In this document: positions 2,956 through 22,035 of the stretch, piece by piece
Position numbering within the stretch: position 1 is the first letter of the stretch
Layout of the letters: the number at the start of each line of letters is the position of its first letter
The notes under the pieces: model-generated
Told to the model about the DNA's origin: nothing
The model's input: the letters and a program-made list of their open reading frames with translations, nothing else
Database searches by the model: none
Program-made: the position numbers and the translations under genes
Assembly: GCA_964450485.1 (NCBI GenBank)
Contig: CAYVDX010000001.1
Location: forward strand, 1 to 27,009
Source of the DNA: an uncultured Calditrichaceae bacterium
GTDB taxonomy: Bacteria; Calditrichota; Calditrichia; RBG-13-44-9; J075
DNA: 27,009 bases
Reading direction: 5' to 3'

Positions 2956-4475
2956 AAGATGAATTCACAATTTTGTATGTGGACGACGAGGCGGCAAATT
3001 TAAATTTGTTTTATAATTCATTCAAAAAACAATATCGCATCATCCGAACGCGGGAGCCGCTTGAAGCATTAAAAATTTGCGGCAGCGAACCGGTGGATTT
3101 AATTTTATCCGACCAGCGAATGCCGGGCATGAAAGGCACCGAACTGTTGAGCAAATTAGCCCGGGAATATCCGAAAATGGTTCGGATTTTAATGACCGGC
3201 TATGCGGATGTGAATGCGGCGATTGACGCAATTAATCGCGGAAAAGTGCATCGATATGTCTCCAAACCCTGGGAAAAAGAAGAATTAGCCGAGGTGCTCA
3301 AACAGGAATTGCAGCTTTACCGGCTGCACGTCGAAAACGAACGATTGTTAATTGAAGTTGAGGAGAACGCCCGGGTTCTGGCGGAAAAAAATCACTTGAT
3401 GGAGATTGCGAACCGGCAGCTTAAAAAAGTGAATCGTGATTTGGAAAAAAAGAACCGGGAATACAAAAAATTATACCGTGATTTGCAGCAACAATTGGAA
3501 GAAAACAAAAACCTGCGAGAAGCCGTTGAGGATCAATATTCATTACAGGGGATTATCGGCAAAAGTCCCCAAATGCAGCATGTCTTTCAAATGATCAGGG
3601 ATGTGTCCGCTTCGGATGCAACCGTCTTGATTTTAGGGGAAAGCGGGACGGGAAAAGAGTTGGTTGCCAGTGCCATTCACAAAAACAGCTCGCGGAATGA
3701 AAATCCGTTCATCGCGATCAACTGCGCGGCGTTGCCGGAAAGCCTGCTGGAAAGCGAATTGTTCGGTCACGAAAAAGGGGCTTTTACGGGCGCGCATCAA
3801 TTAAAGCGCGGCAAGTTTGAGCAGGCCCAAAAAGGGACCATTTTTTTGGATGAAATCGGCGATATCAGCCCGGCGGCACAGGTGCGCTTGCTGCGGATTT
3901 TGCAGGAGAAAAATTTCCAGCGGGTGGGCGGAGAGAAAATTATTCAGGCGGATGTGCGGATTATTTCGGCGACGAACCGCGATTTGCAAGCATTGGTCAC
4001 GGAAGGTAAATTTCGCGAAGACCTTTTTTATCGTTTAAACGTGATCTCGATTGAAATCCCGCCGCTGCACGAGCGGGTGGAAGATATTCCGCTGCTGATT
4101 TACAGCTTTTTGAATCGATACGCCGCGGTAGCCGGGAAAAAAATTCAGGGATTTACCCCGGAAGCCATGCAAATTTTACTGGATTATCACTGGCCCGGCA
4201 ATGTGCGGGAGTTGCAAAATGTCGTGGAAAGAGCCGTGGTGCTGTGCAAGGCAAAAGTGATTACCTCGGAACTGTTCCCGCTGGAACTGCAACAGCTCCG
4301 GGATTCGTCGAATGCGCCACATAAAACGCTATACGAAGCCGAAAAAGAGTTGATTTTAAAGACCTTGGAAGTCACCCATTGGAACAAACACAAAGCCGCG
4401 GAAATGTTGGATATTACCCGGAGCAGTCTTTACAGTAAAATTCAGAAATACGATTTAAAGCAGCCGGAAGATTGA
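2952..4475 (+). CDS. Sigma-54-dependent response regulator, NtrC family (REC, long coiled coil, AAA+, Fis-type HTH)
   Basis: REC with YVDDE, phospho-acceptor in LSDQRMPG and KPW; Walker A GESGTGKE, intact GAFTGA, Walker B FLDEIG, WPGNVREL, HTH NKHKAAEMLDITRSSLYSK. ATG 2952 overlaps the kinase stop (ATGA), which is preferred over the track start 2910. Confidence 0.96.
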   Translation: MKDEFTILYVDDEAANLNLFYNSFKKQYRIIRTREPLEALKICGSEPVDLILSDQRMPGMKGTELLSKLAREYPKMVRILMTGYADVNAAIDAINRGKVHRYVSKPWEKEELAEVLKQELQLYRLHVENERLLIEVEENARVLAEKNHLMEIANRQLKKVNRDLEKKNREYKKLYRDLQQQLEENKNLREAVEDQYSLQGIIGKSPQMQHVFQMIRDVSASDATVLILGESGTGKELVASAIHKNSSRNENPFIAINCAALPESLLESELFGHEKGAFTGAHQLKRGKFEQAQKGTIFLDEIGDISPAAQVRLLRILQEKNFQRVGGEKIIQADVRIISATNRDLQALVTEGKFREDLFYRLNVISIEIPPLHERVEDIPLLIYSFLNRYAAVAGKKIQGFTPEAMQILLDYHWPGNVRELQNVVERAVVLCKAKVITSELFPLELQQLRDSSNAPHKTLYEAEKELILKTLEVTHWNKHKAAEMLDITRSSLYSKIQKYDLKQPED

Positions 4476-4761
4476 TCCTGCCTAACTTGCCTTTCTAAAG
4501 ATTTTAACCGCTACCCCCAAAATAATTTGACGTAAATTCATTGCTTTGTACGCGCTTCGTCGCTTTACATCGCTGTGGGCCGAAATACGTACGTAATTGC
4601 AATGTCTTGTTATTAAAGCACTTACCACTCTTGCGCCTGCCTGTTCTTGCGGAAATGAGGCCGGGTTTTGTACATAAATGAAAATCTTCCCGGATAAAAC
4701 GACAATATTGGTGCTGACAAGGCGTTTTTTTGTATTTTGATACCCGCCATAATTTATTTAT

Positions 4762-4804: not shown

Positions 4805-4820
4805 TGGCACCATTTTCGCA
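4805..4820 (+). promoter_or_regulatory. Sigma-54 (-24/-12) promoter
   Basis: TGGCACCATTTTCGCA: GG at 4806-4807, N10, GC at 4818-4819, matching TGGCAC-N5-TTGCW with one mismatch. It is about 90 bp upstream of the GT operon and next to a GAFTGA activator gene. Confidence 0.75.
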
Positions 4821-4907: not shown

Positions 4908-6167
4908 GTGGTCATTCAAATTCTCCCATTCGTAAAGCCGGCCGTTCGTAAACGCCGCATTGTTCTCTATTCGCACGATACCATGGGCCTGGGTCACATG
5001 CGCAGAAATATATCGATTGCCAGGGCGCTGGCCGCGGAACCCACCCAGGCAGATGTTTTGTTGATTGCCGGGGCAAAACAAGTGAGCAGTTTTAAACTGC
5101 CGCAAGGCGTGGATTGTTTAACGCTTCCGGCGTTTTATAAAGACACGAATGGACAGTATCAGTCCAGATGTTTAGACCTTTCCCTGGAAGACTTGGTGCA
5201 GTTTCGGGGGCGTACCATTCGCGCGGCGGTCAAGGCATTTGATCCGGATGTGATGATTGTTGACAAAACGCCCATCGGTGTTTCCGGAGAGCTGGAACCC
5301 ATCCTGAAGGAATTGCGGATGTATCATCACACTCGCTGCGTGCTCGGCTTGCGCGATATTCTGGATGATAAACAGCAGGTTCAGCGGGAATGGTATCGTT
5401 CCAATTATGATGAGATTATCAATGCTTATTATGACGAGGTATGGATTTACGGTCACCCGGCGATTTATAACATGGTTCGCGAATACGGATTTTCGGATGA
5501 AATCAAAAAGAAAGTGCGCTTCACCGGTTACCTGAACCGCTGCGAATCATCGGAGAATCCGACGAAAGATGATGATCCGTTTGTGAAGTATGGTTTGCCA
5601 AAAGGGCGGTTGGCCTTGTGCATGGTTGGCGGCGGTCAGGACGGCGGGTGCATTACCGAGGCGTTTGCCAGGGCAAAATTGCCCGAAGGATTTGTGGGTC
5701 TCATCGTGACCGGCCCGTTTATGCCGGAAAAGTTTCGTTCCCGCTTGCGGCGTTTGATAAAAGATCGTCCTGAAATGCAGATGACCGGTTTCGTCAAAGA
5801 TCCCCAATCCTTGCTAAAATACGCCGACAGGATTGTCTCAATGGGCGGGTATAATACCGTTTGCGAAATCCTGTCCTTTAATAAAAAAGCGTTGATTATC
5901 CCCCGGGTCATCCCGCGCAGGGAACAATTAATCCGCGCGGAACGCATGAGCAACGCCGGTTTTTTAGATGTGCTGCATCCCGACGGTGTGACGCCGGGGG
6001 CAATCACCGCGTGGCTGCAAACAGCGGAAAAACCGAAATCGTTTCGCAATCGCATTGATTTAAACGGTCTGATCCGCATTCAAAAATATTTACGCGAACT
6101 TCTCATGGTAAGAAAACAACCCCTCGCCAATTTTCAGCAAACGGAGGTAATTTCTAATGTCCAATAG
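4908..6167 (+). CDS. GT-B glycosyltransferase, COG4671 / GT28 C-terminal-like
   Basis: YSHDTMGLGHMRRN, GGGQDG, MGGYNT and PRVIPRREQLIRA motifs; GTG start after AAGGAAGG. Confidence 0.88.
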   Translation: MVIQILPFVKPAVRKRRIVLYSHDTMGLGHMRRNISIARALAAEPTQADVLLIAGAKQVSSFKLPQGVDCLTLPAFYKDTNGQYQSRCLDLSLEDLVQFRGRTIRAAVKAFDPDVMIVDKTPIGVSGELEPILKELRMYHHTRCVLGLRDILDDKQQVQREWYRSNYDEIINAYYDEVWIYGHPAIYNMVREYGFSDEIKKKVRFTGYLNRCESSENPTKDDDPFVKYGLPKGRLALCMVGGGQDGGCITEAFARAKLPEGFVGLIVTGPFMPEKFRSRLRRLIKDRPEMQMTGFVKDPQSLLKYADRIVSMGGYNTVCEILSFNKKALIIPRVIPRREQLIRAERMSNAGFLDVLHPDGVTPGAITAWLQTAEKPKSFRNRIDLNGLIRIQKYLRELLMVRKQPLANFQQTEVISNVQ

Positions 6168-7401
6168 CAAACCCCTTAAAGTCGGATATGTGTTGAAGCG
6201 TTATCCACGCTACTCGGAAACGTTTATTTTGAATGAAATTTTGGCCCATGAGGCGGAAGGTTTAAATATCGAAATATTCTCGCTTTACGCGCCCAAGGAT
6301 ACCCATTTTCAGAACGCGATTTCATCCGTCAAAGCGCCGGTGAATTACCTGTTCGGCTCCCGCTTCGGCGATTTTTGGACGGAGCTGCAAAACGCGACGC
6401 AACAGTTGCCGGGCATTTGGAACGCCCTTGAAGCAGCGCGAGGGGAAGAACGGGAGATTGTTTATAAAGCGATTTTATTAGCGCAGCAAGTCAGACAAAA
6501 AGGCATCACCCATCTTCACGCCCACTTCGGCACAAGCGCGGCGGCGGCAGCGCGTTTAGCCGCGCTGTTTACCGGCGTGCCCTACACATTTACGGCGCAT
6601 GCCAAGGATATTTTTCACGAAAGCGTTGTTCCCGAATTGCTTCAGCGCAAGCTCAGTGACGCCGCCGGCGTGGTGACGGTCAGCGAATATAATGTCGAAT
6701 ATTTGAGTTCCCGTTACGATATGAGCGGCGTTCAATTAAAACGAATTTACAATGGTCTTGACCTGGCGCAATTTCCGTATCAATCCCCGCAAAGCCGCCC
6801 GCTGCGCATCGTGTTTGTGGGGCGGCTGGTTGAAAAGAAAGGCGTCGCGCACCTGATCGACGCCTGCTCGGTGCTGGCAACCCGCAAGCTTCCCTTTGAA
6901 TGCCTGATTATCGGTTCCGGCGAACTTGAGGAGCAACTCCGGGCGCAGGTTGAGCGCCTGGGATTGCAAACAACCGTGAAAATGATCGGGCCGCGTCCAC
7001 AGCGGGAAATCATAAAACTGGTTCAGGAAGCAGCGGTGTTTGCCGCGCCCTGCGTGGTCGGGGCAGACGGCAATCGCGATGGATTGCCGACGGTATTGCT
7101 GGAAGCCATGGCATTGGGAACGCCGTGCGTTTCGACCAGCGTGACCGGCATCCCGGAAGTGATTCAACACGAAAAAACCGGGTTGATCGTGCCGCAGCAT
7201 GACGCTTTTGCGCTTGCCGCCGCGTTGCAGCGATTACTGGAAAATCCCGCGCTGCGCGTAAAATTAGCCGGGCAGGCCCGAAAAATCATTGAAAATGAGT
7301 TTGATATTCATCGAAACGCCGGGCGTATCCGTCAATTTTTTGCGGAAATCGCCGACCCAAAAGACGCGATCGACATCCGCCCGCTGCGGGAGGTCGTATA
7401 A
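6157..7401 (+). CDS. Glycosyltransferase family 4 (WcaL-like)
   Basis: KRYPRYSETFILNE, HLHAHF, FVGRLVEKKG and RDGLPTVLLEAMALG (E-X7-E-type region) motifs; overlaps the upstream gene by 11 nt. Confidence 0.93.
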   Translation: MSNSKPLKVGYVLKRYPRYSETFILNEILAHEAEGLNIEIFSLYAPKDTHFQNAISSVKAPVNYLFGSRFGDFWTELQNATQQLPGIWNALEAARGEEREIVYKAILLAQQVRQKGITHLHAHFGTSAAAAARLAALFTGVPYTFTAHAKDIFHESVVPELLQRKLSDAAGVVTVSEYNVEYLSSRYDMSGVQLKRIYNGLDLAQFPYQSPQSRPLRIVFVGRLVEKKGVAHLIDACSVLATRKLPFECLIIGSGELEEQLRAQVERLGLQTTVKMIGPRPQREIIKLVQEAAVFAAPCVVGADGNRDGLPTVLLEAMALGTPCVSTSVTGIPEVIQHEKTGLIVPQHDAFALAAALQRLLENPALRVKLAGQARKIIENEFDIHRNAGRIRQFFAEIADPKDAIDIRPLREVV

Positions 7402-8573
7402 TGCGAATCGCCTATATCAGCGCCGATAACGGCGTGCCGGTTTTCGGCGCCAAAGGATGCTCGATCCATGCGCAGGAAGTGATCCGCGCGATGCTTGGCA
7501 GGGGCGCGCAGGTTGATTTATTTACCCCGCGTCCGGGCGGACAGCCGCCCCGGGATTTGGCGTCCGTCCGCATTCATTCGCTGCCGTATTTTCCCTCGGA
7601 AAACCCGGCGGCGCGCGAGCAAAAGGCATTAGCGGTGAACCATATTTTGCGGAATGAACTCGAAGCCGCCGGCGAGTTTGACCTGGTTTACGAACGATAC
7701 TCGCTGTGGTGTTTTGCCGGAATGAAATACGCTCGTTTAAAAGGCATTCCCGGCGTGCTGGAAGTGAATGCGCCGTTAATCGACGAGCAGGCAAAATATC
7801 GCGTGTTGATCGATCGCCGGGGCGCGGAGCAAGTCGCCAAAAGAACATTTAACGCCGCGTCAACCCTGGTTGCCGTTTCCAAAGGCGTCGCGAAATATTT
7901 GCGGCGATATGCGAACGATTCCCGGCGGATTCACGTTGTGCCGAACGGCGTTAATCCGCGGCGTTTTTCCCAAAACAGCCACTTCGGCGCGCCGGCTTCA
8001 ACGGGGAGTTTTACCATTGGCTTTGTCGGTTCGTTAAAACCCTGGCACGGGCTTATGCACCTAATCGAAGCATTCTCGATACTCAATCAGCGTGCCGGAA
8101 ATTGGCGCTTGCTCATCGTCGGAGATGGGCCGGAACGTCAGCATTTGGAAGAAAATCTTGAGGCGCGGGGATTGCGACATTTGGTAACATTCAGCGGCGC
8201 GGTGAATCCCGATCAAGTGCCTCGGCTGTTGGCGTCGATGGATGTAGCGGTTGCGCCCTATCCGGATCGAAAGGATTTCTATTTTTCGCCGCTGAAAGTT
8301 TATGAATACATGGCTGCCGGATTGCCGGTTGTGGCCAGCGAGGTTGGTCAGTTAAAAGAGATGATACACCACGGCAAAAACGGCCTGCTTTATACCCCGG
8401 GCGATCACGAAATGCTTGCCGCGATGATAGACCGGCTTTACCGCGATTCCCTTTTGCACACACAAATCGGGCGCGCCGGTTATCAAATGGTCATGGCGGA
8501 TTATACCTGGGATACGCTCCTTGAGCGCATCTTAGGGTTCGCCGGCGTCATGCCCTTATCAAAAGTGGGATAA
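7401..8573 (+). CDS. Glycosyltransferase family 4
   Basis: VYERYSL, EVNAPL, FVGSLKPWHG and FYFSPLKVYEYMAAG motifs; TAATG translational coupling at 7399-7403. Confidence 0.93.
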   Translation: MRIAYISADNGVPVFGAKGCSIHAQEVIRAMLGRGAQVDLFTPRPGGQPPRDLASVRIHSLPYFPSENPAAREQKALAVNHILRNELEAAGEFDLVYERYSLWCFAGMKYARLKGIPGVLEVNAPLIDEQAKYRVLIDRRGAEQVAKRTFNAASTLVAVSKGVAKYLRRYANDSRRIHVVPNGVNPRRFSQNSHFGAPASTGSFTIGFVGSLKPWHGLMHLIEAFSILNQRAGNWRLLIVGDGPERQHLEENLEARGLRHLVTFSGAVNPDQVPRLLASMDVAVAPYPDRKDFYFSPLKVYEYMAAGLPVVASEVGQLKEMIHHGKNGLLYTPGDHEMLAAMIDRLYRDSLLHTQIGRAGYQMVMADYTWDTLLERILGFAGVMPLSKVG

Positions 8574-8579
8574 CGTATA

Positions 8580-8607
8580 GCAGGCAACGGTCGCGACCGT
8601 TCCCTGC
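8580..8607. repeat. 28-bp REP-like palindrome
   Basis: GCAGGCAACGGTCG|CGACCGTTCCCTGC is palindromic with one mismatch, 6 bp after the GT4 stop. It resembles GTAG-type REPs (GTAGGGAACGGTCGCGACCGTTCCCTAC, from memory). Confidence 0.7.
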
Positions 8608-8639
8608 CGTCGTAACTTGACAATGTTCAATTTCAAAGG

Positions 8640-8740
8640 ATTTCGACAGGATCAACAGGATATACATGATATTTCAAAAGAATGATCAACAAATCTTTAA
8701 ATAATAATCCTGTTTAATCCTGTAAATCCTGTCAAAAAAT
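8640..8740. repeat. Inverted-repeat element whose arms are ACAGGAT x3 tandem repeats
   Basis: Left arm ACAGGAT 8646-8652, ACAGGAT 8655-8661, ACATGAT 8664-8670; right arm ATCCTGT 8707-8713, 8717-8723, 8726-8732; AT-rich spacer. Confidence 0.85.
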
Positions 8741-8792
8741 CTAATTTAACATTGTCGAGGTCATTAAAGTTTGAAAAAAATGGAGTTTCAGA

Positions 8793-10646
8793 ATGGCCAG
8801 ACCATTAGAAATAAAAAATATGTTACCATCTCTCTGGCGGGTATTACGCAAATTTTGGCCGTACATTCGTGAGTATCGCTTGTTGATCACGGGTTCTTTA
8901 GCAGCGCTTTTTATTGAAATTGGTTTTCGCGTTCTGGAACCGTGGCCATTAAAATTTGTTTTCGACCGCGTGATTGCCCACCCCCTAAAAAACGGTAAGT
9001 CCCGATTCCCGGCATTTGATTCAATTGATTCGTCAACGCTGCTGATTTTGGCAGCCGTTGGCATAGTTGCATTTGCCGGGTTTCGGGCGCTTGCCGCTTA
9101 TGCAAATAAAATCGGATTTGCACTGGTCGGAAACCGGGTGTTGAGCAAAGTGCGCTCCGAGCTGTATAAACATCTTCAATTCCTGTCGCTTTCTTTCCAC
9201 AACAAGGCAAAAAACGGGGATTTAATCGTGCGGGTCATCGGCGATGTGGGATTGCTGAAAGACGTCACCGTTACGGCGATCCTGCCATTGTTGGCCAATA
9301 CCCTGATTCTGTTTGCAATGATGGGCATTATGCTCTGGCTGAATTGGCAGCTCACGATGGTGGTGCTGGCGGTTTTCCCGCTGTTTCTGCTGTTTGGATC
9401 GCGCATGAGTTTTAAAATCCGCCAGGTTTCCAAGCTGCAACGCCGGCGGCAAAGCGCGATGGCAACCACAGTGGCGGAGTCGTTCGGGGCAATCAAAATT
9501 GTTCAGGCGCTATCGCTTGAGGATGTGTTCGATCAATCATTTTCCAGCCAGAACAACAAAAGCCTGAAAGAAGGCGTGCAGGCAAAAAGACTGTCCGCCA
9601 ACCTGGAACGCACGGTGGATATTCTCATCGCCCTGGCAACGGCTTTGGTGGTGTACTTCGGTTCGCGGTTGGTCATGCGCAGCGCGCTGACGCCCGGCGA
9701 TCTGTTGGTTTTTCTGTCGTATCTGAAAAGCGCGTTTAAACCGGTTCGCAATTTTGCCAAATACACGGCACGGCTTGCCAAAGCCTCTGCCGCCGGCGAC
9801 CGCGTGATGGATATTCTGGAAACCGTGCCGGATATTTGTGATCTGCCGGATGCCGTTCCCGCGCCGTCCCTGCATGGGCATGTCAAATATGAAGATGTCC
9901 ATTTCGCTTATGAACCCGGTCAAAATGTGCTTTCCGGCATTTCATTCGAGGCGCGTCCCGGGCAGCAAATTGCGTTGGTCGGCCCTTCCGGAACCGGCAA
10001 ATCAACGCTCGTCAGCCTGGTGATGCGGCTGTATGAACCCTCCGCCGGCCGGGTGCTTATCGATGGAAAAGACATCCGCGGTTTTACCCTGGGTTCCCTG
10101 CGCTCTCAGATCAGCATGGTGCTTCAAGACCCCATGCTGTTCGGTGCAAGTATTTATAAAAACATTGCTTACGGCGCGCCGGAAGTTACGCGCGCGGAAG
10201 TTGAAGCAGCGGCGCGACTGGCCAATGCCCACGAATTTATCACCGCGCTTCCCGAGGGTTATGAAACCGAATTGGGGGAACGCGGCGTCACATTGTCCAA
10301 CGGCCAGCGGCAGCGGATTGCCATTGCCCGGGCCGCGGTTCGCAAATCACCGATTCTCATTTTAGATGAACCGACCACGGGTCTGGATAAAGAAAATGAA
10401 CACGAAGTGGTGGAAGCGCTGGAGCGCCTGGCCTATGGCCGCACCACTTTTATGATTGTCCACGACCTGAAATTAGCCGTTATCGCGGATCATATCTTAT
10501 TTCTCGAAAACGGTAAAATTTGCGAGCAGGGAAACCATGATGAATTGATGGCGAAAAAAGGGCGTTATGCAGCGATGTGGCGTCTTCAGTCCGCCCACCG
10601 CGATAAACGAATAAACCTGGAGGATACTTATGTTATCTCAGCCTGA
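8793..10646 (+). CDS. ABC exporter, fused TMD and NBD (MsbA/PglK/MdlB-like)
   Basis: N-terminal multi-TM domain, Walker A GPSGTGKS, Q-loop VLQD, signature variant LSNGQRQR, Walker B ILILDE, H-loop VHD; GGAG RBS. Confidence 0.95.
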   Translation: MARPLEIKNMLPSLWRVLRKFWPYIREYRLLITGSLAALFIEIGFRVLEPWPLKFVFDRVIAHPLKNGKSRFPAFDSIDSSTLLILAAVGIVAFAGFRALAAYANKIGFALVGNRVLSKVRSELYKHLQFLSLSFHNKAKNGDLIVRVIGDVGLLKDVTVTAILPLLANTLILFAMMGIMLWLNWQLTMVVLAVFPLFLLFGSRMSFKIRQVSKLQRRRQSAMATTVAESFGAIKIVQALSLEDVFDQSFSSQNNKSLKEGVQAKRLSANLERTVDILIALATALVVYFGSRLVMRSALTPGDLLVFLSYLKSAFKPVRNFAKYTARLAKASAAGDRVMDILETVPDICDLPDAVPAPSLHGHVKYEDVHFAYEPGQNVLSGISFEARPGQQIALVGPSGTGKSTLVSLVMRLYEPSAGRVLIDGKDIRGFTLGSLRSQISMVLQDPMLFGASIYKNIAYGAPEVTRAEVEAAARLANAHEFITALPEGYETELGERGVTLSNGQRQRIAIARAAVRKSPILILDEPTTGLDKENEHEVVEALERLAYGRTTFMIVHDLKLAVIADHILFLENGKICEQGNHDELMAKKGRYAAMWRLQSAHRDKRINLEDTYVISA

Positions 10647-13032
10647 TCGGAACCTGGTGCAACGCGATAAATCCATACCGGGATTGAAAACGCTTTTGGA
10701 TTCGGAATTATTGCTTAAACGGCTGCGCCTGTCGCTTCCAAAAGCCGACCTCCGCGCCGTGCAACCGCGATATATCCGTTATAAACCCGGGATGAATTGC
10801 CTGGTCGCCTACCGGTTGAACGCCGGCGGAAAGTGGATTGATGTGTACGCCAAGGCCCACGGCGCCGATGCTGTCGGTAAGCTCCGAAAAGCCGGCGCTA
10901 AACAGACCACGGGTCCATTCGGCCCGGGGCGCGTCGCTCTGAAAGGCTGCGATGTGGTGGTCTCCTTTTTCCCGAATGACAGCAAACTCAAACGACTGCG
11001 GCGGATTGTGAATGATCGTTTCACAACCAAGCTAATGGCCCGGTTATCTCTGGAAGCGCCGGGTACCGGCGAAATACATTTGACGCCGCTGCGATATAAA
11101 CCCGAACGGCGTTTTGTCGCAAGGCTGGAAATCAATAAAAAACCGGTGGCCCTGTTAAAGATGTACACCCGGGATGCTTTTATACGATCACAAGCGAGCA
11201 CAAACTCGATCGAATCCCGCGGCATGCTGCGTATTTCCGGACGCCTGGGAAAATTCGATCGTTACCAGCTTTTGGGGTTTGAGTGGCTGCCCGGAAAATT
11301 ATTGACGGATATGATTTACAAAAATGATAACGCAATACAAGCGGTCTCGGAAACTGGCGTTGCCCTGGCAAATTTTCATCTTCAGCGTCCCCGGGGCTTA
11401 TACATGCGCACCCGGGCAATGCGCGCGGAAACGCTGCTGTCCCGGGCGGAATGGCTTGGATATGTTTGTCCCGCTTTAAGTGAACAGGCAAAACAGTTAG
11501 CCTGGAAACTATCGGCATGGATAATGTCCCAACCGGAAGCGCAATATCCGATTCATGGCGATTTTTATTCGCAACAGGTGTTGTGGAGCAAGGGCCGCGT
11601 GGGCGTCATCGACCTGGACGAGACCGTCATGGGCGACTCCTGTGTAGATGTGGGTTTATTTGCCGCGCACCTGGAGCGGGATGTTCTACGGGGCGACATT
11701 TCCGCTGCCTCGCGGGAAAATTTTAAGAACGCATTTGTTGAAGGCTATCGCCAGGGCGGCGGCGAGGTTGACGAAACGAATCTTCAGATGTGTATTGCCG
11801 CGGAACTTTTTCAGCTCTCCCACGGACCGTTTCGCGCCTGTGAGCCGGACTGGGCTGCGCGAACAAAAGCGATCCTTCACCGCGCAGCGGCGTTGGTTCG
11901 CTCAACAAAACCCAAAAAAAAGGCGGCGCCGGGAAGACCACCGGTTACGCATTCGCCAAAATCATCCACTACCGCGCTGGTAATCGATCCATTTAATGTA
12001 ACGAAAGATGACGCCATGCCGACGTTGAAACATGCCCTCGCTCCGCACACCGCCGAACAATTACTAAAACGGATGCTCGCGAACGGTGAACCGGGCACAG
12101 GCTCGGAAAATCAATTGGTTGCCATCCGCGCCATCCGGTATAAACCCGGCCGCCGCTGCCTGGTGGAATATACCCTGGCGCAAAATACCGGCGATGGGGC
12201 TCAAAAATTGATCACCTTTTTGGGAAAAACACGCGCCAAAAGAATGGATACACGGACGTTTTTACTCAACCGGGAACTCTGGCAATCGGGCTTTCATCAC
12301 CAAAGCATTGACAATATTTCCGTTCCCCGGCCGGTTGGTATTATTCCCGAATTCAAAATGTGGTTTCAGGAAAAAGTTTCCGGTGTGCTTGCAACACATC
12401 TCATCGAAAAAGAGAATGATCCCGGTTTGGCCAGGCGCATTGCGGAAGCCATCCATAAAGTACACCGCTTAACGCTTGCACCGCGGCGCCGGCACACCAT
12501 GCGGGACGAGCTGCGCATTTTGCACGAACGGCTGCCCTTGTTGACCGAGAGTTATCCACAATGGACCCACCGCCTGGAAAAAATACTCGATGCCTGCGAC
12601 CGGATCGGCGCAACAGTTACAGCGGTAGAACCCACCTGTATCCACCGTGATTTTTATCCCGACCAGGTGCTTGTTTCCGGGGATTGGCTCTACCTCATCG
12701 ATTTTGATCTGTTTTGCCTGGGCGATCCGGCGTTGGACGCCGGTAATTTTCTCGGTCACGTAACCGAGCAGAGCTTGCGAAACCTGGGCAACCCGGCCGC
12801 GCTGGCCGCGTGGGAAAATGCATTTGTCGAGCATTTTGTCGATTTGAACGGCGATAATTTACGGCATAATATCCAGGTTTATAAAATACTCACATTGGCG
12901 CGGCATATTTATATCAGTACGCTTTTCCCGGAACGACGGCTGTTTACGGAGCAATTGATAAATTTATGCGAGCGTCAATTGGCGCGGGCAATTTCAAACC
13001 CTAAAGATCGCGTCATGCTGATGCAGGCATGA
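10630..13032 (+). CDS. Tandem (two-domain) APH/choline-kinase-fold phosphotransferase
   Basis: Two catalytic modules, IHGDFYSQQVL...VIDLDE and IHRDFYPDQVL...LIDFDL, plus three RYKP motifs; overlaps the ABC stop by 17 nt. Confidence 0.85.
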   Translation: MLSQPDRNLVQRDKSIPGLKTLLDSELLLKRLRLSLPKADLRAVQPRYIRYKPGMNCLVAYRLNAGGKWIDVYAKAHGADAVGKLRKAGAKQTTGPFGPGRVALKGCDVVVSFFPNDSKLKRLRRIVNDRFTTKLMARLSLEAPGTGEIHLTPLRYKPERRFVARLEINKKPVALLKMYTRDAFIRSQASTNSIESRGMLRISGRLGKFDRYQLLGFEWLPGKLLTDMIYKNDNAIQAVSETGVALANFHLQRPRGLYMRTRAMRAETLLSRAEWLGYVCPALSEQAKQLAWKLSAWIMSQPEAQYPIHGDFYSQQVLWSKGRVGVIDLDETVMGDSCVDVGLFAAHLERDVLRGDISAASRENFKNAFVEGYRQGGGEVDETNLQMCIAAELFQLSHGPFRACEPDWAARTKAILHRAAALVRSTKPKKKAAPGRPPVTHSPKSSTTALVIDPFNVTKDDAMPTLKHALAPHTAEQLLKRMLANGEPGTGSENQLVAIRAIRYKPGRRCLVEYTLAQNTGDGAQKLITFLGKTRAKRMDTRTFLLNRELWQSGFHHQSIDNISVPRPVGIIPEFKMWFQEKVSGVLATHLIEKENDPGLARRIAEAIHKVHRLTLAPRRRHTMRDELRILHERLPLLTESYPQWTHRLEKILDACDRIGATVTAVEPTCIHRDFYPDQVLVSGDWLYLIDFDLFCLGDPALDAGNFLGHVTEQSLRNLGNPAALAAWENAFVEHFVDLNGDNLRHNIQVYKILTLARHIYISTLFPERRLFTEQLINLCERQLARAISNPKDRVMLMQA

Positions 13033-13057
13033 ATTATCAAGCCAAACTTTACGCCAC

Positions 13058-13105
13058 GGCGTCTTGCCGGTGAAGCCGTTAGGGAACTTTCCCGGCAGAG
13101 ACGCC
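13058..13105. repeat. REP-like inverted repeat
   Basis: GGCGTCTTGCCGG (13058-13070) pairs with CCGGCAGAGACGCC (13092-13105), with one bulged base. Confidence 0.6.
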
Positions 13106-13160
13106 CCGCTTATACTTTGCACGGTTGATCCCGAAGAAGTGGGGATCATTTCATCTGCCT

Positions 13161-13226
13161 CGGTGCTTGAGTGCTTCGGTATTAGAGTAAAAACAATGCT
13201 TTAGCTCCGAAACACTTCTACACTCT
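13161..13226. repeat. Degenerate inverted repeat with roughly 8-nt internal periodicity
   Basis: Left GGTGCTTGA-GTGCTTCG-GTATTAGA-GT. The reverse complement of the right arm reads AGTGTAGA-AGTGTTTCGG-AGCT. Core GTGCTTCGG / CCGAAACAC. Confidence 0.45.
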
Positions 13227-13327
13227 GTTTCTTGCAAAAAGTAAAATTATTGCCCCTGCACAGTATAAAAAAGCGCTGATTTTTAAGCGGGAGCATGGCA
13301 AATTGCACTTATGGACATTTTTTTTAT

Positions 13328-13344
13328 AAACCGTTAAAACGGTT
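13328..13344. repeat. Short palindrome AAACCGTTAAAACGGTT
   Basis: Same family as the copies at 23337-23353 and 23425-23440. Confidence 0.65.
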
Positions 13345-13393
13345 AAATAACCAGTGACGTTGTTCCGCTCGCGCTGAAACGAGAGAAAAAACA

Positions 13394-15157
13394 ATGATTA
13401 AATCATTCTTGTTATTGATGTTAATCATCGGCGAGTGCGTGTGGGCCCAGGGCGGCGCCACGCTCCTTGTTCACCTGAAACCAAAAATGTGGGCGTCCGT
13501 ACGCGGCAGTGTTTCACAGAACCCGGCCGATCCGGTAGTGGCCAAGTCGGTCGAGGAAGTTAAGCCGCGTCCTCATTTTGATCCCGAAAAAATGGAGATC
13601 ACCGCGATTGCCGGCAAAGCGGTGGGGCTGAATGACAGCCTCGTTCAAATCATGAATTACACCGCAATAATCACGGAAAACACGCGCTTTGAGAATCGTG
13701 ATCGCAAAAAAGCGCCCCGCTTTTTCGTAACGCAACATGAATGGATAAAAGTCAAGCTGCGGATTAAACCGGATGGGCGTCTTTTTGCGAGAACCATCCG
13801 GCGAATTGCGCCCCGGGATCGATTTAAGGTGTTTGGGCAAATTCAAAAAGTGTCCGTCGCGGAACAGCGTTTCACCATCGGCGGGATCGAACTCACGGCG
13901 CACCAGCAGATGCGGCTGGCGTTATTGGCGGATCAAAATAACGGCAGCCCCTTGGATCGCTTTTTTCAGGATGAACAAAAAAGCGTGCGGTTCAGCATAC
14001 AGCCGGCAAAAAACATGCTGCTCGGCGGACAGCTATTTACCCGGAGCCGCGCGGATAAAGAGCGCGATTTAAGAAAGTCGCGCAAAAAAGATAAGCAGAT
14101 CATCTCCAGTGAACTTAAGCTCGATGCGCTATGGCATCTTGCCAAAAACGGGTCTTTTACATTTGCCGAGGCTGTGGTGGGGCTGCGGGAACAATTTTTG
14201 AATCAAACCCACGATTTGAGCAGCCGTTCCTACCGGTTGGAGCAAGCGTATGCCTATTGGGTCATATCGCGTGCGTTCACGCTGCAGACCGGCCGCCAGG
14301 ATTTTGACGACGAGCGGGAGTGGCTTTACAATCACCGGCTGGACGGATTGCGCCTGCGTTTTCAAAGCGGCCGCATCATGCTGGAAGTTTCCGCAAGTCG
14401 GGAACCGCGCTGGCTTCGCTCCCAAAATTCTCGTGAAGATGTGGGCAATTTTATTGGATTGCTGCGCTATCACGTTGGCCCCGACGCCTTTTTAAGCACG
14501 TACGCCATGCAGCGAAAAAGTGTTGAAAACAGCGGTTTTCGCCTGCGTATTTTCGGTTTGAGGTATTACCACTGGCCGCGCCGGGGATTTCGTCATTGGC
14601 TGGAATTGGCAAAATCCGAGGGGCAAAATCGTTCCGGCAACGGCAGCGGCTATGCCGTCGATACGGGGATGTCATACATTTTTCGCACCGTCGGAAAACC
14701 GACCATCACCGGCGGCATTGCGTATGCCAGCGGCGATAAAAACAGCGATGATCAAAGTGGTGCGTTCCACCAAACCGGTTTGCAAAAAAACAATGCCCGG
14801 CTTGGCGGCGTCACCAGCTTCAGGTATTACGGAGAGGTGATGGACCCGGAACTGTCAAACCGGGTGATCACGACCCTCGGCATTGACATTCGCCCGATTA
14901 GAAACTTGTCATTGGATGTGGTTTTTCATACCTATCGCCAGGATCAAGCCTCCACCGATTTAGGCGATACGCGCATCAAATCATCGCCGGATGGAAAATC
15001 AAAAGACCTCGGGAAAGAACTGGATTTAATCGTGGGATACCGGTTAAAAAGCTGGGCGAACATGGAGCTTGTTTTAGGGCAATTTAACCCGGGAAATGCG
15101 TTTAAACATCAGGATTCCGCCCGGCTCGCTCAGTTTCAAGTAAGAATGAGTTTTTAA
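13394..15157 (+). CDS. Alginate-export (AlgE-like) outer-membrane beta-barrel with N-terminal DUF5666-like repeats
   Basis: Signal peptide (MIKSFLLLMLIIGECVWA); N-terminal segments such as FKVFGQIQKVSVAEQRFTIGGI are DUF5666-like; barrel segments LEQAYAYW, QTGRQDF, AYASGD, YYGEVMDPELSN, DLGKELDL; terminal Phe (VRMSF). Confidence 0.78.
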   Translation: MIKSFLLLMLIIGECVWAQGGATLLVHLKPKMWASVRGSVSQNPADPVVAKSVEEVKPRPHFDPEKMEITAIAGKAVGLNDSLVQIMNYTAIITENTRFENRDRKKAPRFFVTQHEWIKVKLRIKPDGRLFARTIRRIAPRDRFKVFGQIQKVSVAEQRFTIGGIELTAHQQMRLALLADQNNGSPLDRFFQDEQKSVRFSIQPAKNMLLGGQLFTRSRADKERDLRKSRKKDKQIISSELKLDALWHLAKNGSFTFAEAVVGLREQFLNQTHDLSSRSYRLEQAYAYWVISRAFTLQTGRQDFDDEREWLYNHRLDGLRLRFQSGRIMLEVSASREPRWLRSQNSREDVGNFIGLLRYHVGPDAFLSTYAMQRKSVENSGFRLRIFGLRYYHWPRRGFRHWLELAKSEGQNRSGNGSGYAVDTGMSYIFRTVGKPTITGGIAYASGDKNSDDQSGAFHQTGLQKNNARLGGVTSFRYYGEVMDPELSNRVITTLGIDIRPIRNLSLDVVFHTYRQDQASTDLGDTRIKSSPDGKSKDLGKELDLIVGYRLKSWANMELVLGQFNPGNAFKHQDSARLAQFQVRMSF

Positions 15158-15187
15158 TATAGGTGTCATTTTGAGGAGTAAATCGCA

Positions 15188-16105
15188 ATGAAAATATTAA
15201 TCACCGGCGGGGCCGGTTTTATCGGTTCTAATATCGCTGACAGGTATCTCGAATTAGGCCATCAAGTGGTCATTTTGGATAATTTATCCACCGGGAAAAA
15301 GAACAATATTCATCCGGAAGCCAAATTCTATGAATTTGATATTTGCGACCCTAAAATCAAATTTGTCTTTGAAATTGAACGCCCCGATATTGTCAATCAT
15401 CACGCCGCGCAAATTGATGTTCGCCAATCTGTTTCCGATCCCGAAAACGACGCCCGGATCAATATTCTGGGCACCATCAACCTGTTGCAGCACTGTGCGA
15501 ATTACAATGTGAAAAAGGTGGTATTTGCCTCAACCGGCGGGGCAATCTATGGCGAACAGGATTATTTTCCCGCGGATGAAAATCATCCCACCCGGCCGCT
15601 GTCGCCGTATGGCATTACCAAGCTGACCTGCGAGAAATACCTCTATTTTTATCAACAAAGCCATGGGCTGAACTACACGGTTCTGCGATATGCGAACGTT
15701 TACGGCCCTCGTCAAAATCCGCATGGAGAAGCCGGGGTCGTGGCAATTTTCTGCAAAAAAATGCTGGATAACTCTCAGCCGGTCATCAATGGCAAGGGAA
15801 CTCAAACCCGTGATTATGTTTATGTCGGCGATGTGGTCAAAGCGTCGGAATTAGCACTCGCCGGCGGCGATAATCAAATTTACAACATCGGCACCGGCAT
15901 TGAAACGGATGTGAATACCATTTTTCAAAAAATCGCCAACTTTATGGATGCGTCGATAAAAGAAATTCACGGGCCGGGTCAGCCGGGCGAGCAGATGCGC
16001 AGCGTGCTGGATTATTCTTTGATAAACAAAGCGTTAGCCTGGAAACCCACGGTTGATTTGGACAGCGGTTTGGAAAAGACCGTTGATTTTTTTCGCGCCG
16101 GCTAA
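15188..16105 (+). CDS. NAD-dependent epimerase/dehydratase (extended SDR, UDP-glucose 4-epimerase-like)
   Basis: TGGAGFIG Rossmann motif, STGGAIYG, catalytic YGITK, LRYANVYGPRQ, RDYVYV; GAGGAG RBS. Confidence 0.93.
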   Translation: MKILITGGAGFIGSNIADRYLELGHQVVILDNLSTGKKNNIHPEAKFYEFDICDPKIKFVFEIERPDIVNHHAAQIDVRQSVSDPENDARINILGTINLLQHCANYNVKKVVFASTGGAIYGEQDYFPADENHPTRPLSPYGITKLTCEKYLYFYQQSHGLNYTVLRYANVYGPRQNPHGEAGVVAIFCKKMLDNSQPVINGKGTQTRDYVYVGDVVKASELALAGGDNQIYNIGTGIETDVNTIFQKIANFMDASIKEIHGPGQPGEQMRSVLDYSLINKALAWKPTVDLDSGLEKTVDFFRAG

Positions 16106-16153
16106 TACGAAACAACAAGCCTGTTTACACCTTGCCATGGCATTTTCGACATT

Positions 16154-16172
16154 TTTGTCAAGTAGCGACAAA
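16154..16172. promoter_or_regulatory. TTTGTC-N7-GACAAA dyad, possible transcription-factor site
   Basis: Perfect 6-bp inverted repeat in the spacer upstream of the second sigma-54 promoter. Function unknown. Confidence 0.3.
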
Positions 16173-16433
16173 TCCTGAAATGACACTTCTGTTTTAACAC
16201 CTTTTATGCACTTTTTCGGTATAAAAAAATTCATTAAAATGTCTGTCCACTGTTGCTTTTCCAGCCTTTCGGCCGAAAAGCGTACACACCTGTAATATAC
16301 TGTTATTGCATGGTTTATCGCTTTTTGTACGCGAATAATATTGTGGGTTAGGGGTCGGTTTTTGTACAAAATTGACCGCGCGCTATCTAAAAACATCAAT
16401 AAACGACGTTTCTCGGACAATTCTGTGTGTATG

Positions 16434-16446
16434 TAAGTTGTTTATT
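16434..16446 (-). promoter_or_regulatory. Candidate IHF site
   Basis: TAAGTTGTTTATT has one mismatch to the reverse IHF consensus YAANNNNTTGATW and lies about 45-55 bp upstream of the -24 element. Confidence 0.35.
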
Positions 16447-16487
16447 TGCAAGAAGTTAAAGCAAAGGGAGGTGTGGCGGTAAATTTT

Positions 16488-16503
16488 TGGCAGTTTTCTT
16501 GCC
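16488..16503 (+). promoter_or_regulatory. Sigma-54 (-24/-12) promoter
   Basis: TGGCAGTTTTCTTGCC: GG at 16489-16490, N10, GC at 16501-16502, with TGGCA and TTGC both matching consensus; upstream of a GT4. Confidence 0.75.
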
Positions 16504-16654
16504 TTATTGCAATTCAGACAGAAAAGATCATTTTGTCGATTGGGGGATATTTGAAATCAATGCGGGGGTAACCGCGAATACAGAGCTTGTTTTTTCTTTA
16601 CTGTATTTGTTGGGACAATGTGAACCAATCTCAAAAAGGCGAAGGAAGGCTTTA

Positions 16655-17866
16655 ATGGAAGGATTTCAACCGGAGACAGGAAAAGAAAAAATTCGGGTTA
16701 CCCATTTAATCAATTATCTCGCCCCGGCAGGGAAAGAAATGGGCGTTCTCAAGCTGATAAAAAATTTGGATTCAAATGTATTTGAAAGCTCTTTAATCGC
16801 ACTCAATGCAATTCGAAATTCAAGCGTATTAAATTTAAAGAAAATAGATGTTTATTGCATGAATCACGCCGGTGGAAACAGTTTAACGCTCCCGGTAAAA
16901 CTCGCAAAGTTGCTCAACAAACAGCGACCGCACATCGTCCACACCCATTCCTGGGGGACGTTGCTGGAAGGCGTTATTGCGGCAAAATTGGCAAAAATTC
17001 CCGCCATCGTTCATAGTGAACATGGCACATTTCCGAAAAAAAAGGCACATTTGCTTTTCCAGCGATATTTTTGGGCTAAAGCCGACGAAGTGATCTCCGT
17101 ATCAAATGACCTTCGCAATCGTCTGGCTCAGTCCGTCGGGTTTCCGCGGGACGCTATCAAGGTAATTTTAAACGGTGTGGAAAAAGCGCGCTTTTATGTT
17201 TGCGGAGATCAAAGACAGCTTTTCCGCAAAAGGTTTATGTTTTCAAATGATGAATTTGTGGTTGGCGCTGTCGGGCGGTTGACAAAGGTTAAAAACCAGA
17301 TGATGTTGCTGCGGGCCTGCAAGGAAATTGTGAAGCGCGGCGAGCAAATTCGTGTTGTTATCGTGGGTGGTTTTGCTGTCGGAGACGGTGTGGAAGCGGA
17401 ATTGAAACAATTCGTGGAAAACAACGGATTGTCCCGACAGGTACGCTTCACCGGTTTTCAAAAAGAAATGAACATGTTTTACAACGGGTTTGACCTGTTT
17501 GTCCTCACCTCGCTCTGCGAAGGTTGCTCAAACGTCATCCAGGAAGCAATGATCTGCGCGAAGCCGGTGATTGCCACAAATGTCGGTGGGAACAGCGAGT
17601 TGGTTCAGGATGGAAAAACCGGCTTTTTAGTGCCGTTAAACAATCCTGTTGAACTCGCCGATCGCATTTTGCAGATAAAAAAAGACCGCAAGCTCCGGCA
17701 AAAACTGAGTTGGAATGCCTACCTTCATGCGACAAACCATTTTTCTTTAGGAGCGATGGTTAACGCCCATGCGGACATTTATAGGAATGTTTATCACAAG
17801 GCCATCGGAAAAGCATCCAGGCATGAGAAAGTCCCGCGGGAATCATTGCATATTTCCTTCAATTAA
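16655..17866 (+). CDS. Glycosyltransferase family 4
   Basis: IVHTHSW, VHSEHG, GAVGRLTKVKNQ and LCEGCSNVIQEAM motifs. ATG 16655 follows GAAGGAAGG. The track start at 16487 lies inside the sigma-54 promoter and adds 56 non-homologous residues. Confidence 0.92.
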   Translation: MEGFQPETGKEKIRVTHLINYLAPAGKEMGVLKLIKNLDSNVFESSLIALNAIRNSSVLNLKKIDVYCMNHAGGNSLTLPVKLAKLLNKQRPHIVHTHSWGTLLEGVIAAKLAKIPAIVHSEHGTFPKKKAHLLFQRYFWAKADEVISVSNDLRNRLAQSVGFPRDAIKVILNGVEKARFYVCGDQRQLFRKRFMFSNDEFVVGAVGRLTKVKNQMMLLRACKEIVKRGEQIRVVIVGGFAVGDGVEAELKQFVENNGLSRQVRFTGFQKEMNMFYNGFDLFVLTSLCEGCSNVIQEAMICAKPVIATNVGGNSELVQDGKTGFLVPLNNPVELADRILQIKKDRKLRQKLSWNAYLHATNHFSLGAMVNAHADIYRNVYHKAIGKASRHEKVPRESLHISFN

Positions 17867-21901: not shown

Positions 21902-22004
21902 GACAATTCTCCTTATTTAAACGACATTTATTTCATTACGCCGTGTTTTTTTACGCAATATCTTCGTTTTATGTAAAGAGATCGTCGGAACCGGAGAACT
22001 TTGA

Positions 22005-22028
22005 CGTAAAATCCGATCGGATTTTACG
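22005..22028. repeat. Perfect 24-bp palindrome CGTAAAATCCGATCGGATTTTACG
   Basis: Read directly, just downstream of the AraC stop. No U-tract follows it on the minus strand, so it is REP-like or an operator rather than a classic terminator. Confidence 0.7.
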
Positions 22029-22035
22029 AAAAAAT

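Follow-up and report, generated by a model that had tools for sequence, protein, structure and literature searches.

Three export schemes are currently used to classify the glycans that bacteria display on their surface or secrete. In the alginate system of Pseudomonas aeruginosa, a synthase built on a family 2 glycosyltransferase (GT2; Alg8/Alg44), the tetratricopeptide repeat (TPR) lipoprotein AlgK and a cyclic di-GMP (c-di-GMP) receptor accompany AlgE, the known outer-membrane exit for an anionic glycan. In Escherichia coli O9a (WbdA/B/C-WbdD-Wzm/Wzt) and in the KpsMT/KpsDE systems, GT4 enzymes assemble the glycan in the cytoplasm, and a kinase acts before export by an ATP-binding cassette (ABC) transporter. 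Type IV ABC exporters such as NdvA/ChvA (cyclic beta-1,2-glucan) and MsbA/PglK take sugar-containing substrates over the inner membrane. Here we describe a gene cassette in a stretch of 27,009 nt from an uncultured Calditrichaceae bacterium (contig CAYVDX010000001.1; the whole stretch is called the window here). This copy originates from a hydrothermal-vent metagenome. The compact gene set fits none of the three schemes and is found in about 500 species-level genomes. We cautiously favour the reading that it is a conserved mobile cassette that makes, phosphorylates and exports an anionic glycan, first through its ABC exporter and then through a porin. The run in the window consists of eight co-directional open reading frames (ORFs), all on the plus strand:

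4908–6167, plus strand: GT-B glycosyltransferase (GT) with a GT28-type C-terminal domain (core gene 1; Pfam)
6157–7401, plus strand: GT4 glycosyltransferase a, GT4a (core gene 2; Pfam)
7401–8573, plus strand: GT4 glycosyltransferase b, GT4b (core gene 3; Pfam)
8793–10646, plus strand: ABCB-type (type IV) exporter of 617 amino acids (aa) with fused transmembrane (TMD) and nucleotide-binding (NBD) domains (core gene 4; Pfam ABC_membrane and ABC_tran)
10630–13032, plus strand: tandem APH/maltokinase-like kinase of 800 aa with two APH domains (core gene 5; Pfam)
13394–15157, plus strand: porin with signal peptide, DUF5666 and AlgE-type beta-barrel (Pfam, AlphaFold2 (AF2), Foldseek)
15188–16105, plus strand: NAD-dependent SDR sugar-nucleotide epimerase/dehydratase (Pfam; GalE-like, below the NCBIfam cut-off)
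16655–17866, plus strand: GT4 glycosyltransferase c, GT4c, of 403 aa (Pfam; start moved from 16487)

ORFs were called mechanically, and gene families were called with Pfam and NCBIfam. Neighbouring genes overlap by 11, 1 and 17 nt (the 17-nt overlap is at the ABC/kinase junction), and the intergenic gaps in the run measure 220, 362, 31 and 382 nt. A first-pass annotation, made from the letters of the sequence, had described the run as GT, GT4, GT4, ABC exporter, kinase, porin, epimerase and GT4; all of these ORFs exist, and Pfam and NCBIfam return the same families. It had also stated that canonical flippase, polymerase, ABC-2, outer-membrane polysaccharide export (OPX), polysaccharide co-polymerase (PCP), primer and GT2 genes are lacking, and this was confirmed. 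Among the non-shadow ORFs of at least 100 aa in the window, there is no Wzx/Wzy, Wzm/Wzt, Wza/Wzc, Bac_transf/Glycos_transf_4 primer or GT2 synthase, and the Pfam families ABC2_membrane, Poly_export and Wzz are absent.

A motif/pattern scan of one genome per GTDB species yielded 498 cassette loci, and the best 80 were examined. As the best of a motif-seeded scan, this set is biased toward fused kinases. The core order was scored by BLAST of the window proteins against the locus ORFs in the 55 loci with at least 6.5 kb of upstream sequence. The order GT28-like, GT4a, GT4b, ABC, kinase is kept in 51 of the 55, and the remaining four loci are rearranged or missing genes. Orthologues of the first GT head the cassette in 54 loci. 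Such repetition is far beyond chance, and the survey showed that the five core genes are a fixed unit across many phyla. The genes thus co-occur widely, a point on which the first-pass annotation had made its proposal depend. For the accessory genes, all ORFs of the 80 loci were clustered, and recurrent families were typed by Pfam. The proposed eight-gene system stands as a five-gene core with modular accessories, but not as a single block: the epimerase was found only in the window and in a metagenomic relative (L001), and it and the fourth GT4 are lineage-specific accessories.

Carrier taxa, taken from record titles, belong to at least 14 phylum-level groups. They include Chloroflexia, Acidobacteriota, Planctomycetota, Verrucomicrobiota, Gemmatimonadota, Trueperaceae, Cyanobacteria, Myxococcota/Deltaproteobacteria, Nitrospirota, Nitrospinaceae, Rhodothermales, Spirochaetales and Entotheonella. 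Many Gammaproteobacteria are also carriers, including the cultured Vibrio bivalvicida, V. brasiliensis, V. amylolyticus, V. profundi and V. ouci; Lacipirellula limnantheis I41 is a further cultured carrier. Ten large E. coli/Escherichia plasmids hold a split-kinase version, in the order GT28, GT4, GT4, ABC, APH, phosphotransferase, ‘alginate export family protein’ and nucleotide-sugar dehydrogenase. On plasmid pCFSAN004179G (L092, 159889–170067), the cassette lies approximately 3 kb from the sta1 heat-stable enterotoxin gene and an IS630 transposase. A literature search found no description of a GT28-like/GT4/GT4/ABC/kinase cassette, and neither this search nor the NCBIfam cut-offs matched the set to a characterised pathway.

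The tandem kinase has around 180 close homologues in a 90% clustered database and 3,145 cluster representatives at E≤1e-30 in a 50% clustered library. The top 150 representatives are all full-length and two-headed. In 24 diverse homologues, H309-x-D311, Q316 and D328-x-D330 of head 1 are invariant, as are H672-R-D674-F and D691-x-D693 of head 2; the loop Gln of head 2 is in the consensus and lies outside the invariant columns. These motifs show both heads to be intact in their predicted catalytic residues. Folds of the kinase and the porin were predicted with AF2, and the models were searched with Foldseek against the PDB. The kinase model (predicted local distance difference test, pLDDT, 88.3) has two complete kinase bodies and a disordered linker at residues 429–446. 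Profile alignment showed that the HGDxxxxQVL loop is common to the kinase and the maltokinases 4o7o and 4u94, and the D-x-D/E motif after the catalytic loop likewise aligns with both. Where APH(4)-Ia has its Mg-binding Asn, the cassette kinase has this Gln; the corramycin kinase and 3csv keep the Asn. As judged from the alignments, the loop Gln favours a carbohydrate substrate.

This loop, HGDxxxxQ, is also what would be expected if the kinases act first, making a sugar 1-phosphate or other phospho-acceptor that is then glycosylated by the GT4s, with the phosphate serving as a biosynthetic handle. The longest Foldseek alignments of the kinase, those to maltokinase and glucosamine kinase (460–507 columns), agree with such a scheme, and the small acceptors used by the GT4a relatives GlgM, MshA, BshA and sucrose-phosphate synthase are all phosphorylated or acidic. 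We nevertheless consider it improbable. The kinase gene stands last in the core, and fusions and neighbourhood connect the kinase both with the exporter and with a sulfotransferase, a late decorating enzyme. No TreS, GlgE or nucleotidyltransferase is conserved nearby, and none of the 80 cassette loci holds TreS or GlgE. The kinase does not fall with the maltokinases (Mak/Pep2) overall, its sequence match being weak (E 2.7e-6 over 90 residues) and the GlgE-pathway context missing. The target TM-score of the Foldseek comparison with maltokinase is 0.41–0.48.

The APH-fold matches of the kinase include macrolide, hygromycin, capreomycin and corramycin kinases, the closest relatives of the ABC protein are multidrug exporters, and the distribution of the cassette is patchy and mobile. 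A set for detoxification or self-resistance, in which a small molecule is glycosylated, phosphorylated and pumped out in the manner of macrolide GTs, Mph kinases and ABC efflux, would have these properties too. It would not explain the three GTs of fixed order, two of which are GT4 and not of the antibiotic-acting GT1 type, nor the catalytic-loop Gln, which is unlike that of resistance kinases. It is also at odds with UDP-glucose dehydrogenase, sulfotransferase and dedicated outer-membrane barrels, and small-molecule biosynthetic genes are not conserved nearby; neither such a gene nor a precursor peptide is common to at least five of the 80 loci. We regard this explanation as very improbable. 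A kinase acting on a peptide that is made on the ribosome and modified after translation (RiPP), like LxmK, was considered and rejected, as no conserved precursor, cyclase or protease was found. Single-domain APH-family paralogues form further clusters on contigs C162, C737, C251, C159, C91, C479 and C463 of the window genome (G000), and some of its relatives also hold clusters of this kind.

The first GT (4908–6167) matches Glyco_tran_28_C only, at 26.4 bits against a cut-off of 22. An N-terminal GT28 domain was not detected, and the MurG model gave 19.9 against 339. GT4a is 49–63% identical to the same-slot proteins of other loci and GT4b 42–57%. The nearest solved structures for GT4a are BshA, PimB', MshA and GlgM. 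The best NCBIfam match of GT4c, the stp2 PEP-CTERM-type GT, is below its cut-off. Every NCBIfam match of the ABC exporter is under its cut-off as well: for the MsbA equivalogs, 428.8 against 602 (TIGR02203) and 353.8 against 867 (NF008381); for PglK, 168 against 1000; and for the glucan exporter NF010178 (NdvA), 343 against 733. The curated cut-off of HepA was also failed. Sav1866 is the best solved bacterial relative, with MsbA next, and the exporter is best described as a generic ABCB/Sav1866-type protein. With the PglK/MsbA-type ABCs invoked in the first-pass annotation, it shares the fused type IV architecture, but it fails both the MsbA and the PglK cut-offs. A separate ABC-2 permease and ATPase (Wzm/Wzt, KpsMT) is not what the window has, ABC_membrane and ABC_tran being fused in one chain. 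Chloroflexia copies (L002/L003:6881–9982) carry a WD40 beta-propeller fused to the C-terminus of the ABC protein, and two proteins, P0368 and P0380, are single-chain TMD-NBD-kinase-kinase fusions of approximately 1,380–1,400 aa. These ABC-kinase fusions and the 17-nt gene overlap in the window argue that the kinase works at the exporter.

MsbA models are the top NCBIfam matches of the ABC protein, and the parts list superficially resembles that of a lipopolysaccharide (LPS) inner-core or lipid A pathway, with WaaG-type GT4, WaaP-type kinases and an MsbA flippase, next to which the porin would merely be adjacent. We give this idea almost no credence. The MsbA score is 429 bits against a cut-off of 602, and the kinases fall in APH rather than in the Kdo/WaaP family. 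Chloroflexia metagenome-assembled genomes have the cassette, as do plasmids of E. coli, whose chromosome has waa and msbA. No copy was found in 40 relatives that would still need a core pathway, and the porin subfamily tracks the cassette. Both this explanation and detoxification fit the accessories and the distribution poorly.

A membrane glycolipid as the product has to be weighed at this point. The GT28-like enzyme would act on diacylglycerol or a polyprenyl phosphate-linked sugar, the GT4s would extend it, the kinases would phosphorylate the head group and the MsbA-like ABC protein would flip it, with the barrel either handling lipid or unrelated. MurG and monogalactosyldiacylglycerol (MGDG) synthase belong to GT28, the lipid-acting PimA, PimB' and PglA are among the nearest solved relatives of GT4a, and the best NCBIfam matches of the ABC protein are MsbA-related models, although the protein misses the MsbA and PglK cut-offs by a wide margin. 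The ABC-kinase fusions would put the kinase at the membrane, and the Chloroflexia and Vibrio cassettes work without any barrel. The missed cut-offs and the evidence from the barrels and accompanying genes, given below, make us think this product unlikely.

The porin matches Pfam PF13372 (Alginate_exp) at 96.1 bits over residues 210–577 (cut-off 25.2). Its N-terminus has a predicted signal peptide followed by a beta-rich DUF5666 domain, and the AF2 model (pLDDT 84.9) shows approximately 18–19 strands in residues 199–586. The top 17 PDB matches in Foldseek are all AlgE (E 2e-22 to approximately 1e-20), with a target TM-score of 0.71–0.80 and an identity of 16–18%. The next family, the Occ/OprD porins, is ten orders of magnitude worse. 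On the strength of the predicted fold, the porin is a structural member of the AlgE family. Six porin homologues on long contigs (46, 41, 36, 31, 29 and 28% identity) were chosen blind to context. Four lie directly behind a GT28-like, GT4, GT4, ABC, kinase(s) cassette, and a fifth lies behind a cassette variant that has no ABC gene and is followed by a sulfatase/phosphodiesterase. The sixth, in Halioglobus (L099:5991–10749), comes after an ABC membrane protein, an NTP_transferase and a TagF-type Glyphos_transf protein, which look like a teichoic-acid-like, phosphate-rich polymer module in a Gram-negative genome. The AlgE-fold DUF5666 porin subfamily is shown to be a recurrent cassette partner in diderm bacteria, and the porin belongs to the system as a module.

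The slot behind the kinase, or inside the cluster, holds an Alginate_exp barrel in around 15 of the 80 loci. An unrelated beta-barrel of approximately 340 aa, with weak OMP_b-brl/BBP2/SlipAM matches, takes the same slot in 14 of the 80. In Chloroflexia, the slot is occupied by a calcineurin-type phosphoesterase (Metallophos), with no barrel. In 14 loci, a 3'-phosphoadenosine-5'-phosphosulfate (PAPS)-type sulfotransferase separates ABC from kinase; in P0015 and P0278 it forms a single protein with the kinase. A UDP-glucose dehydrogenase adjoins the cassette in 10 loci (Trueperaceae, Vibrio) and also on the E. coli plasmids, and periplasmic beta-helix and sulfatase/phosphodiesterase genes accompany several copies. 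The accessories point to an anionic glycan leaving the cell. For a glycolipid, it is awkward that AlgE-type barrels are known solely as channels for a soluble anionic polymer, that two unrelated barrel families alternate in one slot, in diderms only, and that several copies have the beta-helix and sulfatase/phosphodiesterase genes just mentioned.

The remaining features of this copy are two regulatory genes, candidate control sites and a repeat element:

1330–2955, plus strand: sensor histidine kinase (HAMP, HisKA, HATPase_c; Pfam), overlapping the start of the next gene
2910–4475, plus strand: sigma-54-dependent response regulator (REC, AAA+ Sigma54_activat, HTH_8; Pfam, 252 bits)
4663–4681, plus strand: upstream box 1 (GGNTTTTGTACANAANTGA), a candidate activator site approximately 140 nt before promoter 1
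4805–4820, plus strand: sigma-54-type promoter 1, TGGCAC-N5-TCGCA, one base off the consensus and 88 nt ahead of the first GT
8613–8759, strand not assigned: palindromic repeat element of approximately 147 nt, resembling a miniature inverted-repeat transposable element (MITE) (RNA hairpin and genome matches)
16063–16095, plus strand: terminator-like hairpin, a 9-bp stem then ATTTTTTT, at the end of the epimerase gene
16357–16375, plus strand: upstream box 2, the same motif as box 1, conserved in L001
16488–16503, plus strand: sigma-54-type promoter 2, TGGCAG-N5-TTGCC, its GG-N10-GC conserved in L001

Promoter 1 lies directly behind the sigma-54 activator gene. Both sigma-54-type promoters carry the 19-nt box approximately 130–140 nt upstream in a similar flanking architecture, and the box pattern occurs exactly twice in the 27-kb window against 0.01 expected. 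The region of box 2 and promoter 2 is conserved in L001 by alignment. The GG-N10-GC signature, adjacent activator gene and upstream box are those of a predicted sigma-54-dependent operon. The suggestion of the first-pass annotation that the system is under signal control finds support here in the adjacent histidine kinase, the sigma-54 activator and the two matching putative promoters. The terminator-like hairpin would close the first unit, and GT4c appears to be tied to the cassette by the second promoter with its matching box. Since this promoter occupies 16488–16503, GT4c most likely starts at ATG 16655, not at 16487; the L001 alignment and a GAAGGAAGG ribosome-binding site back this start. 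Elsewhere, 6 of 53 other loci have sigma-54-like sites close to the first GT, compared with 1.9% of background windows, and the first GT28-like enzyme of one locus (L096:1190–3271) is fused to REC and PAS domains. Signal control is therefore a recurrent but not universal theme. The histidine kinase that precedes this fusion in L096 has a weak DUF5666 match, as in the porin N-terminus. No orthologue of the window's histidine kinase (1330–2955) was seen in relatives, and in five relatives only the AAA+ part of the sigma-54 regulator matches, to paralogues (17–24 per genome). Scans for sigma-70 promoters and terminators gave background levels, and no Rfam RNA family matched anywhere in the window.

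The cassette is foreign to this genome. In the window, its GC content is 51–57%, compared with approximately 42% in the flanks, and no kinase orthologue was found in 40 relatives, the nearest of the same genus and the farthest of the same class. The cassette appears to have been horizontally acquired here. An inserted copy of the palindromic element accounts for the 220-nt gap between GT4b and ABC; in most other loci these two genes overlap, touch or are separated by a few tens of bases at most. The predicted hairpin of the element (8613–8759) has −46.5 kcal/mol (z = −7.5). It gave 53 matches on around 40 contigs of the same genome, a count that includes partial copies and both-strand self-matches, and several of the matches are at contig ends. 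The element is like a MITE or a repetitive extragenic palindromic (REP) sequence and may affect transcript continuity. The metagenomic relative L001 has a block of porin, epimerase, GT4, Tsp and ParA in common with the window at 75–96% protein identity. The kinase is a mosaic relative to L001:89–2488, with 74–80% identity over residues 1–100, 28–52% over 100–550 and 84–94% over 550–800, although the flanks of the two genomes are 85–96% identical in protein sequence. The first head and linker may therefore have recombined or diversified. The closest complete relative (G002) has only the Tsp protease in common with the flanks, and the boundaries of the insertion could not be drawn. The Tsp protease gene itself (18341–20350) has an in-frame TGA at 18665–18667 that divides it into ORFs of 108 aa and 559 aa, and in relatives Tsp is intact at approximately 683 aa. 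The TGA could be a sign of a pseudogene, a sequencing error or recoding. Further along, at 20789–23199, the window has a T9SS-tailed SGL/beta-propeller gene and an AraC-type regulator gene on the minus strand. The syntenic L001 lacks this pair, which appears to be a local insertion.

Under the reading that we favour, a conserved mobile cassette for an anionic glycan, the histidine kinase would sense a signal, and the activator would switch on both sigma-54 promoters. In the cytoplasm, one inverting GT28-like GT and two or three retaining GT4s would assemble a short glycan, probably containing a uronic acid or an epimerised hexose, given the epimerase here and the UDP-glucose dehydrogenase elsewhere. 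The two kinase heads at the exporter would then phosphorylate two positions, and in some lineages sulfate would also be added. The ABC exporter would carry the anionic product over the inner membrane, and the porin would pass it through the outer membrane; the periplasmic DUF5666 domain may receive it. The product may be a phosphorylated oligosaccharide or glycolipid, as the first-pass annotation had suggested.

Several observations weigh against this reading. The kinase fold does not discriminate between substrate classes, as the Foldseek scores are alike (approximately 1e-8 to 1e-6) for sugar, antibiotic, choline, tryptamine and peptide kinases. We set aside the fold as a guide to the substrate, and the one pointer to sugar kinases is the Gln signature. 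Among the gene families shared by at least five of the 80 loci, there is no primer transferase and no lipid-carrier enzyme. An adjacent barrel is missing from the Vibrio copies and from many of those in Planctomycetota. The porin phylogeny is incongruent with that of the ABC protein and the kinase. In L095 and L096, the porins are 45–49% identical to the window porin, with the ABC protein at approximately 35% and the kinase at no more than approximately 23%; L029 has the opposite pattern, with the porin at 28% and the ABC protein at 59%. This incongruence suggests that barrels are exchanged among cassette lineages and not strictly co-inherited. Strict co-inheritance of porin and cassette is ruled out, as porin identity tracks neither ABC nor kinase identity. 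The porin was claimed at the outset as part of the system, and five of the six blind-picked homologues behind a cassette or its variant bear this out, but it is shuffled between cassette lineages. In the window, the 362-nt gap and the 220-nt repeat insertion break the operon, so that a transcript taking in the porin, or even ABC and kinase together, is putative. No RNA run contains the window sequence.

A wider claim can be made only tentatively, and we hold it to be possible, not probable. The cassette may represent a fourth, self-contained route of envelope-glycan secretion. It would combine cytoplasmic GT-B assembly with double phosphorylation (or sulfation) by maltokinase-like kinases docked at a type IV ABC exporter, and its outer-membrane exit would be an AlgE-type porin whose DUF5666 domain acts as receiver. 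It would work without Wzx/Wzy, ABC-2/OPX or a synthase, and it would be mobile between phyla and onto enterobacterial plasmids. Identification of the product would give a function to thousands of proteins named only ‘phosphotransferase’ or ‘alginate export family’ and would show how an ABC pump can feed an AlgE-type pore. A new class of extracellular sugars, phosphorylated or sulfated, might also come to light, with a bearing on biofilms, host interaction or mineral surfaces. Cultivable carriers exist, among them several Vibrio species and Lacipirellula limnantheis.

The cassette exporter has the type IV ABC architecture of NdvA/ChvA and MsbA/PglK, in which a sugar-containing substrate crosses the inner membrane; unlike these systems, it has no Cgs/NdvB synthase, oligosaccharyltransferase or ligase partner. 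The cassette kinase shares the APH-type fold, the N-terminal cap and the HGDxxxxQ motif with Mak/Pep2 (4o7o, 4u94) and the actinobacterial glucosamine kinase (6hwl), but in contrast to Mak/Pep2 it has two heads per chain, sits in an export operon and has no TreS/GlgE context. The likeness to the E. coli O9a and KpsMT/KpsDE systems lies in cytoplasmic GT4 assembly and in a kinase placed before ABC export, and that to WbdD-type systems in a kinase physically coupled to the exporter, as in the P0368 and P0380 fusions. The cassette exporter is, however, a fused ABCB/type IV half-transporter with no OPX (Wza/KpsD) or PCP (KpsE), and no primer GT is linked. The proposed scheme of kinase before export resembles the WbdD precedent invoked in the first-pass annotation, but the analogy is a loose one, given that the heads of the kinase are maltokinase-like. 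The double APH/maltokinase-like kinase has neither the methyltransferase domain nor the coiled coil of WbdD, and the 617-aa ABC protein has no extra C-terminal module such as the carbohydrate-binding module (CBM) on the ABC ATPase of the WbdD-type system; one distant half-kinase (P0114) does come with a methyltransferase. The window porin shares its Pfam family and its best-matching barrel fold with AlgE of P. aeruginosa, and its presumed role is that of AlgE. The cassette is still not an alginate-type synthase-dependent system. Its AlgE-family pore comes without Alg8/Alg44/AlgK-type partners (GT2, PilZ and TPR proteins) or a c-di-GMP receptor, none of which is in the window or in the families shared by related loci. 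Instead, the cassette pairs the pore with an ABC exporter and carries DUF5666 in place of the TPR scaffold.

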